A stretch of 64,000 nt of DNA from a virus: positions 64,001 through 128,000 of the IMG/VR virus record IMGVR_UViG_3300042924_004713; one strand, written 5' to 3'. A program made the translations under genes and the position numbers. Numbering within the stretch: the first letter of the stretch is position 1; every line of letters starts with the position of its first letter. Of the stretch, positions 320 through 12,798 are shown one piece after another. Under the pieces are notes generated by a model. That model was not told the DNA's origin, searched no databases, and saw only the letters and a program-made list of their open reading frames with translations.

Positions 320-348
320 TTGACCAATATTTGGCGTTTGTTTATAAT
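320..348 (+). promoter_or_regulatory. sigma70-like promoter TTGACC-N17-TATAAT
   Basis: Near-consensus -35/-10 boxes with 17-nt spacer; same motif recurs across the window. Confidence 0.75.
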
Positions 349-464: not shown

Positions 465-469
465 TTTGA

Positions 470-668
470 ATCCCGCAGTCCCTTCTGCGTTATTAAAGGG
501 GGTGGTTGGCGTCACCACAATGCCAGGGCTCATACGATGAAAGCCTCAGAACCCGCAGACATGGGTGCCAGAAAAATCGTAGGTGGGTATCACGCCTAGC
601 CAGAAGTAAGTGTGATGGACAGAGTAACAGCTCAGTCAGGGGCTTGAGGGATCAAGTGGCCTGACACC
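470..668 (+). ncRNA. putative structured ncRNA, copy A
   Basis: 5' H-type pseudoknot (CGCAG/CTGCG; TCCCTT/AAGGGG); 3' module shared with 1001-1196. Confidence 0.55.
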
Positions 669-718
669 TAACTACAAGGAGAGTCCATTATGGACAGTGA
701 CAAGAGTGGTAAGATGAA

Positions 719-794
719 GGAGCTATAGTCAAACGGTTAAGACAGCGGACTTTTAATCCGTCAGGTCAGGGTTCGAATCCCTGTGGCTCCACCA
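719..794 (+). tRNA. tRNA-Lys(TTT)
   Basis: Cloverleaf, anticodon loop CTTTTAA, encoded CCA. Confidence 0.95.
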
Positions 795-875
795 TATAAA
801 AACACATTCGAACACATATAGGCGGCCGGCGCTAGGGAAATCTTTACGGAGTTCCTGGAATGTGTTTCTATATGG

Positions 876-904
876 TTGACCAATTAAATTCTTTTTGTTA
901 TACT
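876..904 (+). promoter_or_regulatory. sigma70-like promoter TTGACC-N17-TATACT
   Basis: -35/-10 with 17-nt spacer upstream of tRNA-Met. Confidence 0.7.
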
Positions 905-923
905 AGACAAAATACAATACAGC

Positions 924-1000
924 GGCGGAGGGGAGAAACGGTTTACTCGTTGGTCTCATAAGCCAAAGACATCAGGTTCGATTCCTGTTCTCCGCAACCA
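924..1000 (+). tRNA. tRNA-Met(CAT), initiator-like but atypical
   Basis: CTCATAA loop, 1:72 mismatch, CCGCAACCA end; lacks the three consecutive G-C anticodon-stem pairs. Confidence 0.8.
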
Positions 1001-1196
1001 GTTCCGGTTACTACTTTCCTGAAAGTAGGGGGCGCCACACCATAGTTAGGCCGGTTGGCTAGGCTACCGTTAGCGCAATGCAGAGCAGAGCACCTAGATA
1101 TGCGGACAAAACCGCTAGCACGAGACGCTGAAACAAATGTGGACAGGGTAACCACTCCAGGATAGGGGCGACTGTGGAAAAGCGTGGCCTAACCAA
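1001..1196 (+). ncRNA. putative structured ncRNA, copy B
   Basis: CTACTTT/AAAGTAG pairing at the 5' end; 3' module TGGACAG..GTAAC..CTC..AGGGGC..GTGGCCT shared with copy A. Confidence 0.55.
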
Positions 1197-1313
1197 GATT
1201 TAAAATAAAACAGAAGTGAGCGATCTGTCTCTGAAAAGAGTTTAGCAAGGGTTGATGCGGTATCACAGCTTCGGCATCTGTAACAGCGATTCCTTGTTAG
1301 TTCTCGATTTTAT

Positions 1314-1388
1314 GCACGGTTCGTCTATCGGTTAGGACACAGCCCTTTCAAGGCTGGAAGACGGGTTCGATTCCCGTACCGTGTACCA
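1314..1388 (+). tRNA. tRNA-Glu(TTC)
   Basis: Cloverleaf, loop CTTTCAA, CCA. Confidence 0.95.
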
Positions 1389-3990: not shown

Positions 3991-4458
3991 GTGCCACGTA
4001 TCGACGTAGATGAAATAAAACAATTTGTAGACAACTGTGGCCCAGGTACTCGTGTATATCTCGGTGCTGATAGTATTAGATATAGAGAAAAAAACATATG
4101 GTACGCTGAATACACTGTTGCGGTTGTGATACACATCAATGGCAACAACGGTTGCAAGATCTTTGGCGAGATCACAAGAGAACGTGACTATGACCACAAG
4201 CTCAGCAAACCTGCCATGCGGTTAATGAATGAAGTATATCGTGTTAGTGAGATGTTTCAGAGGCTAGCACCAGTAATGGGTGACTTTCCAGTTGAAGTAC
4301 ATCTGGATATCAATCCCAATGAAGCACACGGTAGTAGTTGTGTAGTTGGTCAGGCCATTGGCTACATTCGCGGTACTTGTAATGTGATTCCTTTGGTAAA
4401 GCCAAAGGCATTTGCAGCAAGCTATGCAGCAGACAGAATTGCCAATGGAGCATTATAG
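3991..4458 (+). CDS. RNase H-like YkuK/DUF458 family protein
   Basis: Motifs VYLGADS, EVHLDIN, KPKAFAASYAAD. Confidence 0.8.
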   Translation: MPRIDVDEIKQFVDNCGPGTRVYLGADSIRYREKNIWYAEYTVAVVIHINGNNGCKIFGEITRERDYDHKLSKPAMRLMNEVYRVSEMFQRLAPVMGDFPVEVHLDINPNEAHGSSCVVGQAIGYIRGTCNVIPLVKPKAFAASYAADRIANGAL

Positions 4459-5426: not shown

Positions 5427-5502
5427 GCCGACTAAGCTAATCTAGTGAAAGCATGTGTCTGAAGAACACGAGAGCCTGGAGCGTAACCAGGAGTCGGCAC
5501 CA
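5427..5502 (+). tRNA. tRNA-Phe(GAA), non-canonical elbow
   Basis: Loop CTGAAGA; T-loop AGCGTAA; D-loop lacks GG. Confidence 0.87.
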
Positions 5503-6008: not shown

Positions 6009-6383
6009 ATGAAAATTCTAGATCAAGATTTTAGATTTGAATGGTTTAGTTCCACTGGTGGCGGTGGACAACATCGCAACAAACATCAGAACTGTTGTCG
6101 TTGTATCCATGTGCCCACTGGCATACAGGCCAATGGCACTTCAAGTCGCAGCAGAGAAGACAATCGCAAGAATGCTCTAGCAGTGTGTCGTGCTAGAGTA
6201 CAACGACATTTTCACAAGGATACCGAACGTTATCGTGCTTCCAATGAACGTGTACGCACATATCATGAAGTAGACAATCGAGTGTATGATCATGCTTCGG
6301 GCTTGACTGACACCTATCAAAATGTCATTGTCAAGGGCAATGTTGACAAACTGATTCAAGCCCGAGCACAAGCTGTAAAATAA
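6009..6383 (+). CDS. truncated class I release-factor-like peptidyl-tRNA hydrolase (GGQ; ArfB/PrfH-like)
   Basis: GGGGQHRNK, HVPTGI, SRSREDNR and RVRTYH...RVYDH motifs of RF domains 3-4; no stop-codon-reading domain. Confidence 0.85.
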   Translation: MKILDQDFRFEWFSSTGGGGQHRNKHQNCCRCIHVPTGIQANGTSSRSREDNRKNALAVCRARVQRHFHKDTERYRASNERVRTYHEVDNRVYDHASGLTDTYQNVIVKGNVDKLIQARAQAVK

Positions 6384-12084: not shown

Positions 12085-12234
12085 ATGATAGTCTGTGTAT
12101 GTAGAAATATCCGTGAATCAGATTTTCAAACCAAAGAAGAATTGGTTAAACGCATCATGGAATTGGATCACAACTGTGGACAGTGTCAGCAATACTGCGA
12201 ACAGCTAAAAGAATTGTTGTATGAAGCAAACTGA
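12085..12234 (+). CDS. Bfd-like [2Fe-2S] protein (49 aa, MIVCVCRNI...NCGQC)
   Basis: Manual translation; CxC...CGxC cysteine pattern of bacterioferritin-associated ferredoxin. Confidence 0.75.
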   Translation: MIVCVCRNIRESDFQTKEELVKRIMELDHNCGQCQQYCEQLKELLYEAN

Positions 12235-12560
12235 AAAGGGTTCTGGACGCGGGTTCGACTCCCGCCTGGTCCACCATAAGGAGATTGTATGCCAGTAGAC
12301 ATGTACTACTATACCGAAAGCGAATGGAACAGATTGGGCTGCGGCCCACTGCCTCCAGAACGCAACATACTTAATCGTCAGTCTCTTTATGATGGGCCAG
12401 ACATGGTTTCGACAGGGTCAAGAGTAGGCAAGCAGACAACACGAGAGTCGACTGACGTAATCAGCGAAACATAGTAACTGCAAACGCAGCTAACGACGAG
12501 GTATTCGCTCTCGCAGCGTAACCTCCGGGGCAGTTATGCCTTGTAACCCAAAATAGCAAG
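12215..12560 (+). ncRNA. ssrA: circularly permuted (two-piece) tmRNA
   Basis: Acceptor piece (T-arm GCGGGTTCGACTCCCGC, CTGGTCCACCA ending 12276) precedes the coding piece (GGGCCAG at 12394, G3.U pair, TTCGAC); tag ORF 12480-12521 ANAANDEVFALAA*; outer ends approximate. Confidence 0.92.
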
Positions 12561-12580
12561 CCCGCTTCGGCGGGCTTTTT
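12558..12580 (+). terminator. intrinsic terminator
   Basis: AAGCCCGC-TTCG-GCGGGCTTTTT. Confidence 0.9.
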
Positions 12581-12597
12581 CATGAATAAATATCAGT

Positions 12598-12798
12598 ATG
12601 TGGATATTGATCATCAGCATGTATTTGGCACAACCTTTGGGACAGACCCAAAGCAAAGGCATTATTCAAGCACCACAACCTGACTATGAAAGCTGTATAC
12701 GTGAACGTGACCGTATAAGAGCCACTTGGTATACAGAGGGATACAAGGTTAGCCCTCGCTGCGTCTACGTCAAACACTATAACTCCCGCGGCATGTAA
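12598..12798 (+). CDS. small hypothetical protein
   Basis: ATG follows TAAATA-N5; hydrophobic N-terminus, two Cys. Confidence 0.65.
   Translation: MWILIISMYLAQPLGQTQSKGIIQAPQPDYESCIRERDRIRATWYTEGYKVSPRCVYVKHYNSRGM

Follow-up and report, generated by a model that had tools for sequence, protein, structure and literature searches.

Two units of about 200 nucleotides (nt) at the start of a phage transfer RNA (tRNA) array are members of a real and widespread family of structured RNAs that matches nothing in Rfam 15 or in the literature searched. They are located in a stretch of 64,000 nt, here called the window, which corresponds to positions 64001-128000 of the 166-kb IMG/VR viral contig IMGVR_UViG_3300042924_004713, with an estimated completeness of 48%. 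The first 6.5 kb of the window are filled by 28 co-oriented tRNA genes and a few small open reading frames (ORFs), and the start of this array (470-1196) had been flagged in a first-pass annotation as holding two diverged copies of an unannotated structured RNA. These copies, A and B, represent two deep classes of a phage family with more than 100 members, and not a local duplication. Each unit is a non-coding RNA gene of ~200 nt with a four-pseudoknot fold, and the family is a phage-only one.

The fold, first read from bounded units of four subtypes, consists of four consecutive H-type pseudoknots followed by an invariant core and a hairpin. In each pseudoknot, the loop of a hairpin (S1, S3, S5, S7) pairs with a strand located just downstream (forming S2, S4, S6, S8), and the next hairpin begins immediately; the third pseudoknot contains an inserted hairpin (Px), and the fourth has a long A-rich linker. 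Each pseudoknot ends, on its 3' strand, flush with the start of the following hairpin, which allows the helices to stack as a single rigid body; this body occupies the 5' three quarters of the RNA and is conserved in structure and hardly in sequence. The 5' pyrimidine tract that had been seen to pair with a downstream purine tract, in a pseudoknot-like way, is helix S2 in both copies, and this end of the RNA is the first of the four consecutive pseudoknots.

Two models were built to search for this fold: R1, with a seed of copy A plus 46 other class-A units and helices S2, S3, S6, Px, S8 and the 3' hairpins, and R2, with the crossing set S1, S4, S5 and S7. Copy A fits every helix of the fold and is matched at 149.4 bits by R1 (expectation value, E, 2.8e-49, full model length) and at 148.8 bits by R2. 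Copy B is recovered by R1 with 39.9 bits (E 4e-12) and, like copy A, spans the full length of the model, even though the seed contains no class-B sequence, and it aligns with 36 other class-B units (alignment A6). The proposal of a paralogous non-coding RNA family is borne out by this recovery and by the base-pair covariation that backs the fold. The contig carries exactly two copies, as the R1 search returned nothing beyond A and B in the window or in the whole 166 kb. The 12-mer GGACAGRGTAAC occurs exactly only at 617-628 and 1141-1152 in the 64-kb window, with two mismatches in all other matches, and the local alignment of both units scores 56, against 32 +/- 5.4 for shuffled sequences (maximum 50, n=200). 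Plain MAFFT gave no informative alignment of the two units. Their single-sequence minimum free energy folds showed no signal (z-scores of -0.96 and +1.21), as expected of a pseudoknotted RNA.

The covariation among homologues, whose absence had been named as the finding that would refute the structure, is present in the alignments of both classes. For class A, 68 sequences were aligned to R1, with slid pairing partners and 500 shuffles as controls. Over S2, S3, S6, Px, S8 and the two 3' hairpins Ha and Hb, 91.2% of the cells pair (35-47% when slid), the covariation score is 0.597 (0.07-0.13 when slid), none of the 500 shuffles reaches the observed values, and 32 of the 39 pairs show changes on both sides. 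Taken helix by helix, S2 is 99.7% paired with both-side changes in 5/5 pairs, S3 is 98% paired, GC being swapped for CG in 22/68 sequences, S6 is 89% paired (both-side changes in 5/5 pairs), Px 84-92%, S8 84% (4/5 pairs) and Hb 98-100% (8/11 pairs). The crossing helices S1, S4, S5 and S7 are 85% paired overall in the R2 alignment, where S5 reaches 100%, and S7 77-86% with both-side changes. In class B, the four pseudoknots are 90.2% paired, as opposed to 33-41% with slid partners, and double changes are seen in 21 pairs; this alignment is a plain MAFFT one of 37 units, on which the pseudoknots were drawn by hand. The class-A alignments were fitted to the structures, which somewhat inflates their pairing; even so, the comparison with slid partners and the large number of double changes speak for a real signal. 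In addition, G.U pairs, which would be C.A on the opposite strand, are frequent (one Hb pair is U.G in 55/68 sequences) and thus fix the strand. An all-against-all screen of column covariation on the MAFFT alignments was crude and too noisy.

Two points weigh against the fold as drawn. S1 and S4 are only 66% and 63% paired in the R2 alignment (A5), being short and in poor register, and in copy B both pseudoknot 2 and S8 consist of only 2-3 base pairs (bp), read by eye. The low pairing of S1 and S4 is explained by helices of 3-5 bp slipping register. In a per-sequence test, 88% of the sequences, versus 41% of the shuffles, have an S4 helix of 4 bp or more, in many sequence variants, and the variants of S1 include CAGAG/CTCTG and CGGGC/GCCCG.

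Table 1. Positions, in window coordinates, of the two RNA units, their helices, and the tRNA genes and promoter-like sites around them.
Feature	Position	Strand	Details
Promoter-like site	320-348	+	TTGACC-17 nt spacer-TATAAT; 11/12 consensus positions
Copy A	467-672	+	class A, ~205 nt, between tRNA-like element 362-464 and tRNA-Lys 719-794
Copy A pseudoknot 1	474-501	+	S1 CGCAG 474-478/CTGCG 485-489; S2 TCCCTT 479-484/AAGGGG 496-501
Copy A pseudoknot 2	501-526	+	S3 GGTG 501-504/CACC 513-516; S4 TTGGCG 506-511/TGCCAG 521-526
Copy A pseudoknot 3	527-581	+	S5 GGCT 527-530/AGCC 542-545; S6 TACGAT 533-538 (S5 loop)/ATCGTA 576-581
Copy A hairpin Px	ACCC 551-554/GGGT 563-566	+	with A-rich linker, between S6 strands
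Copy A pseudoknot 4	582-617	+	S7 GGTGGG 582-587/CCTAGCC 595-601, one bulge
Copy A S8	TATCA 588-592 (S7 loop)/TGATG 613-617	+	A-rich linker 602-612
Copy A 3' module	616-665	+	core TGGACAGAGTAACAGCTCAG 616-635
Copy A Ha	A621-U632, G622-C631, A623.G630	+	hexaloop GUAACA 624-629
Copy A Hb outer stem	GTCAGG 635-640/CCTGAC 660-665	+	then internal loop GG 641-642 vs UGG 657-659
Copy A Hb inner stem	643-647/652-656	+	loop GGGA 648-651
tRNA-Lys	719-794	+	within flagged span, outside both RNA units
Promoter-like site	876-904	+	TTGACC-17 nt spacer-TATACT; 10/12 consensus positions; TG ahead of second hexamer
tRNA-Met	925-996	+	within flagged span, outside both RNA units
Copy B	998-1201	+	class B, ~200 nt, begins right after tRNA-Met CCA end
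Copy B pseudoknot 1	1006-1028	+	S1 GG 1006-1007/CC 1018-1019; S2 CTACTTT 1011-1017/AAAGTAG 1022-1028
Copy B pseudoknot 2 (weak)	1029-1052	+	S3 GG 1029-1030/CC 1040-1041; S4 GGC 1031-1033/GCC 1050-1052
Copy B pseudoknot 3	1052-1097	+	S5 CGGT 1052-1055/ACCG 1066-1069; S6 CTAGG 1059-1063/CCTAG 1093-1097
Copy B pseudoknot 4	1102-1140	+	S7 GCGG 1102-1105/CCGC 1112-1115; S8 ACA 1106-1108/TGT 1138-1140
Copy B extra hairpin in last linker	AGC 1117-1119/GCT 1127-1129	+	
Copy B 3' module	1140-1194	+	core TGGACAGGGTAACCACTCCAG 1140-1160
Copy B Ha	A1145-U1156, G1146-C1155, G1147.A1154	+	loop GUAACC 1148-1153
Copy B Hb outer stem	GGATAGG 1160-1166/CCTAACC 1188-1194	+	one A.A mismatch; internal loop GG vs UGG
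Copy B Hb inner stem	1169-1173/1181-1184, bulged A1171	+	loop GUGGAAA 1174-1180
tRNA-Glu	1314-1388	+	113 nt 3' of copy B

The best-conserved part of the RNA is its 3' module, the very segment that the first-pass annotation had singled out. The pattern described there as common to both copies (NN-CTC-(C)AG, a stem, GGC, a variable hairpin, GTGG and the return stem) is found in each of them, and the outer Hb stems indeed pair while being unlike in sequence, with one A.A mismatch in copy B. Across the family, the last ~57 nt are nearly invariant and comprise UGGAC, a 3-bp hairpin and the long hairpin Hb; nearly all the invariant columns of the RNA fall within them. The core UGGACAGRGUAAC-NN-CUC is invariant save for the R and the NN (alignment A2). 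The R covaries with the second N (A.G in 78 sequences, G.A in 19, A-U in 6 and G-C in 1), and the first pair of Ha changes from A-U to G-C in two sequences, which together indicate that the core forms the 3-bp hairpin Ha with a GUAACN hexaloop. Hb, of 6 + 5 bp, shows rich covariation; its purine-rich internal loop, GG/URG, is invariant, and its terminal loop is of the GUGG type or GGGA. Both copies of the window have the core and the GG/URG hairpin, and the GUGGAAA loop of copy B is that of most class-B units.

Several known motifs were considered for this module and rejected. The G of GCUC varies with its pairing partner, which speaks against both a boxA/boxB/boxC-like antitermination signal (it is hence not boxA) and a mimic of the tRNA D arm (GCUCAGU). 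The internal loop of Hb misfits the consensus of both the kink-turn and the loop-E motif, and the topology of Hb does not match that of ribosomal RNA (rRNA) helix 43 or of a permuted mimic of the GTPase centre.

A scan of IMG/VR with the 18-base core pattern TGGACAGRGTAACNNCTC found at least 117 contigs, and the locus counts given here concern the matches listed. In 113 of these 117 contigs, the next 40 nt share one downstream plan (a stem of 4-7 bp, GGGC, a hairpin, GURGC and the return stem), with stems that are unlike in sequence from contig to contig. R1 gave 107 matches in 100 sources, including some copies without the exact core, and the size of the units is 190-215 nt across the family. 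Class A and class B occur together in seven sources, the contig of this window among them; the six other loci with one copy of each class indicate that the classes are old, sometimes coexisting alternatives and not the result of a recent duplication. In three complete or near-complete genomes (168, 169 and 345 kb) the RNA is present as a single copy, and the carrier phages, with genomes of ~168 kb to ~345 kb, have 20-40 tRNAs.

As far as these data go, the family is restricted to uncultured phages. Among the GTDB representatives (596 Gb of bacterial and archaeal sequence), the core pattern had 95 matches, for about 500 expected by chance on our own estimate, and no convincing member; one of them (L149) passed a crude filter for the downstream pattern and was judged spurious by eye. 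The 50,697 GenBank phage records gave no match to class-A and class-B queries in the distant mode of blastn. In the literature, the core string was found only in unrelated primers, and nothing specific to this RNA was found in that on the topic; a 2023 catalogue of ~10,000 viral candidate RNAs (PMC10690425) may include the family.

The association with tRNA genes is nearly constant. According to ARAGORN on oriented loci, 114 of 116 listed units have a tRNA gene on the same strand within 1.5 kb, and none of the 116 has one on the opposite strand within that distance. An upstream tRNA is abutted by 55 listed units and a downstream one by 41, with 25 units exactly filling an inter-tRNA gap of 193-212 nt. 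Units are found anywhere in the arrays (on average 13 tRNAs lie upstream and 7 downstream), beside many different kinds of tRNA, and some are directly 3' of a protein gene or of a sigma-70-like promoter. Such a promoter is present a few bases 5' of the unit in L009, L025, L068 and the L058/L062/L067/L081 group: L009 has tRNAs nearby, L068 has no upstream tRNA and its closest tRNA is 366 nt downstream, and L025, with its own TTGACA/TATAAT promoter, has no tRNA within 4.6-8 kb. The occupation of any array position, the stand-alone unit of L025 and the single copy per genome suggest that the RNA is an independent gene rather than a spacer.

Regarding the known RNA families, the first-pass annotation had been unable to assign the copies to GOLLD, ROOL or manA, and this stands: no Rfam 15 family overlaps 467-672 or 998-1201 at the gathering threshold. 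A strong Rfam match, named beforehand as able to remove the novelty, was likewise not found with E up to 10 (searching 7 kb, 751 bases and one top-scoring homologue), where only chance micro-hits of 13-17 bits appeared (copy A was hit by FTX_1 on its minus strand, and the L047 unit by mir-1994 and lysM-Actino).

The extra stable RNAs of phage tRNA clusters have been known since T4, and their purpose is not known to have been solved. Those of T4, rnaC and rnaD, are excised from the tRNA precursor, and we know of no function established for them. They are non-tRNA RNAs (species 1, 139 nt, and species 2, 119 nt, respectively) that end the tRNA cluster on the tRNA strand, by tRNA-Arg (NC_000866). 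Similarly, the units described here are on the tRNA strand inside or beside a cluster and are bounded by tRNA ends. However, rnaC and rnaD are shorter and have no GGACAGRGUAAC core, and R1 with its filters off gave no match on either of them in the T4 tRNA region, the best score elsewhere in it being 6.3 bits. Judging from these comparisons, they are analogues of the family and not homologues.

GOLLD and ROOL are about 3-4 times larger than the ~200-nt units. They resemble them in being orphan, highly structured phage RNAs that often adjoin tRNA genes, with no function reported in the abstract of PMC12286853; GOLLD and ROOL form RNA-only multimers. Transfer-messenger RNA (tmRNA, ssrA) is also a stable RNA with a series of H-type pseudoknots, is tied to translation and is encoded by the same phage near the tRNA array. 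However, the units have no tRNA-like domain, resume codon, tag frame or match to a tmRNA model, their four pseudoknots directly follow one another instead of being interrupted by an mRNA-like segment behind the first, and they end in A/U-rich tails such as CACUUUAU, unlike a CCA acceptor end. ARAGORN and the Rfam tmRNA models found only one tmRNA in the window, a permuted one at about 12163-12612, 3' of the array, which Rfam scores at 127-128 bits over 12163-12582. Ribozymes of the hepatitis delta virus (HDV)-like and theta type have a nested double pseudoknot (P1, P2, P3, P1.1, P4) starting from a cleavage site after the tRNA, whereas the units follow an S1a-S2a-S1b-S2b series and were not matched by the HDV-type Rfam model. 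Stacked pseudoknots of similar size that engage translation factors or the ribosome are found in the upstream pseudoknot domain of tobacco mosaic virus and in the intergenic internal ribosome entry site of dicistroviruses; these are cis elements of eukaryotic RNA viruses with no sequence relation to the units, and the analogy is a functional one only.

A last resemblance concerns helix 44 of 23S rRNA, in the GTPase-associated centre (E. coli 1090-1104), where AGC[GUAAUA]GCU-CAC compares with AGR[GUAACN]NCU-CAG of the family at ~12/15 positions, with the same stem ends, the GUAA of the hexaloop and the following CA (the 58-nt E. coli sequence used for the comparison has a 100% match in 23S rRNA). 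The likeness does not extend to helix 43 or to the three-way junction, and in the family the third pair of the stem joins two purines. The resemblance could be due to chance or to a shared loop fold, and it is a weak lead rather than a sign of membership.

With respect to its function, we give a probability of about 0.55 to the RNA being a stable, trans-acting binding platform or decoy for a partner related to translation or to tRNAs. It would be transcribed on the tRNA strand, usually within the tRNA operon, and its ends would be set during maturation of the flanking tRNAs, by RNase P where the following tRNA begins and by the 3' tRNA trimming pathway behind the preceding CCA. Such a release by tRNA processing is suggested by the units abutting tRNAs and by the window, where no terminator-like site was found in positions 1-1800 and hence none between the RNA units and the tRNAs. 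The pseudoknot body would then act as a rigid, nuclease-resistant scaffold presenting the invariant 3' module, the putative working end, which would bind a conserved partner in trans during infection, most probably a protein or an RNA of the translation or tRNA machinery. This binding role is favoured because the constraint concentrates in loops and in an internal loop typical of recognition sites, because the gene is single-copy and movable within genomes, and because the carriers invest in translation, with tRNAs, a tmRNA and a gene with an RF-1 domain (6009-6383) in the case of this phage. Given the large carriers with 20-40 tRNAs, plus the tmRNA and the release-factor-like gene here, the RNA likely contributes to the takeover or protection of translation by large phages.

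Other observations count against such a role. The transcript ends, the stability and the action in trans are read from the gene arrangement alone; no gene is consistently adjacent to the RNA among the loci examined for a partner by neighbourhood, and the neighbour genes tried (PF04308, RF-1 domain, coiled-coil, RNA polymerase omega-like) vary by phage. Moreover, a core this elaborate and invariant would be expected of a ribozyme no less than of a binding platform.

A more specific form of trans action, which we regard as unlikely, is that of a device gripping tRNAs or the ribosome, functionally akin to the RNase P specificity domain or to Stem I of the T-box, or of a decoy for a factor that reads the GTPase centre. 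Here, UGG would pair with CCA and Ha would copy helix 44. The single-stranded UGG could pair with the CCA ends of tRNAs, which is a weak lead. If true, lake phages would use the RNA to detect, sequester or process tRNAs, or to draw away a host factor of translation or defence.

It is improbable that the unit is instead a cis-acting element of the operon, either a spacer guiding processing or a leader conferring termination resistance, such as put RNA or the rrn leader. The embedding of the units in tRNA operons, often flush with tRNAs on both sides, would agree with this, as would the several units located a few bases after a sigma-70-like promoter and the two copies of the window, both within about 150 nt of a promoter-like site. 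However, a genome of 168-345 kb usually has a single unit, and dozens of its tRNAs are processed without one; units are mid-array on average and beside many different tRNAs, contrary to an array leader; the L025 unit has no nearby tRNA; and a spacer needs neither ~30 invariant bases nor four pseudoknots.

Similarly doubtful is a ribozyme, self-cleaving at its boundaries like the HDV-like theta ribozymes or acting on tRNAs in trans like RNase P. The compact fold with several pseudoknots, the strictly invariant core of ~20 nt, the UGG able to pair with a CCA end, the constant association with tRNA genes and the coincidence of unit boundaries with tRNA ends at many loci are all compatible with catalysis; on the other hand, no Rfam ribozyme model matched with E up to 10, the helix order is a simple H-type series instead of the HDV-like nested double knot, and many units have no adjacent tRNA on one or both sides.

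There is little chance that the units are subunits of an RNA-only multimer like the GOLLD and ROOL cages, with class-A and class-B copies co-assembling. Even though they share the genomic niche of these RNAs, reported to form homo-oligomeric complexes (PMC12286853), have a rigid stacked body and, in seven sources, come as one class-A and one class-B copy, they are far smaller at 200 nt, a conserved self-complementary loop was not seen in them, and complete genomes with a single copy of either class indicate that a hetero-pair is not required.

Finally, it is scarcely credible that the units are a diverged known family (a tmRNA piece, RNase P RNA, a group I intron, a T-box, GOLLD, ROOL or manA) or a short coding gene: the pseudoknot string recalls tmRNA, the core reads NUG-GAC-AGR-GUA-ACN with its three variable positions at third codon positions, and short ORFs are listed over the units (e.g., 506-664), but no Rfam model matches with E up to 10 where the true tmRNA of the phage is clearly scored, the tRNA-like domain and tag reading frame of tmRNA are missing, compensatory stem changes (CUCAU..GUGAG to CUCCU..GGGAG) abolish the stop codon of the mini-ORF, its length ranges from 8 to >20 codons without conservation, and variation tracks base pairing, not codons.

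The family offers a better handle on the T4-era puzzle, with more than 100 natural variants, a fold backed by compensatory changes and a sharply conserved 57-nt module amenable to mutation, bait experiments or structure determination. It is also a clear candidate for a new Rfam entry, since its missing annotation leaves holes of ~200 nt in phage tRNA arrays, easily misread as spacers or small ORFs.

Around the two copies, the promoter-like site at 320-348 would drive a tRNA-like element, copy A and tRNA-Lys, and that at 876-904 would drive tRNA-Met, copy B and tRNA-Glu. The tRNA-like element (362-464), located between the first of these sites and copy A, is a 19-bp stem (362-380/446-464) around a degenerate T arm, GGCGGTTCGAATCCCC, and is not called as a tRNA by ARAGORN or Rfam. 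A long hairpin at 791-876 (ACCATATAAAAACACATTC ... GAATGTGTTTCTATATGGT), separate from the RNA units, begins at the CCA end of tRNA-Lys, and its arms look like those of the 362-464 stem. It is directly 5' of the TTGACCAAT promoter-like site, and a promoter-like site was likewise assigned to the 362-464 stem; both elements may be processing or termination cassettes. Just 3' of copy A, a short hairpin at 686-705 (GTCCATTATGGAC) includes ATGGACAGTGAC, a partial repeat of the core ATGGACAGAGTAAC, and may be the leftover of a duplication. The G+C-rich and ORF-poor stretch between tRNA-Glu and tRNA-Asp (1393-1588) has no match to R1 or R2, and Rfam finds at 5427-5499 a tRNA (42.9 bits) that is missing from the ARAGORN list.

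Among the protein genes of the array, a 124-amino acid (aa) ORF at 6009-6383 has an RF-1 (GGQ) domain (Pfam E 7e-16); its product, encoded beside the tRNAs and the tmRNA of the phage, is a putative rescue factor of ribosomes or peptidyl-tRNA hydrolase of the ArfB-like kind. The gene at 3991-4458 specifies a PF04308 'RNase H-like' protein of 155 aa (phrog_11311), which recurs in 17 of 117 related listed loci (L006, L007, L009, L012, L016, L029, L030, L032, L041, L056, L064, L076, L079, L087, L093, L107 and L117), its gene lying immediately 5' of the RNA in L056; this recurrent tRNA-array gene is a possible, unproven candidate partner of the RNA. In many class-A loci of the T1/T2 type, the RNA directly follows the stop codon of a gene for a conserved coiled-coil protein (191 aa, no family match), and ahead of this gene lies one for an 82-aa protein resembling RNA polymerase omega (Rpb6), as in L118 (3328-4132, minus strand).

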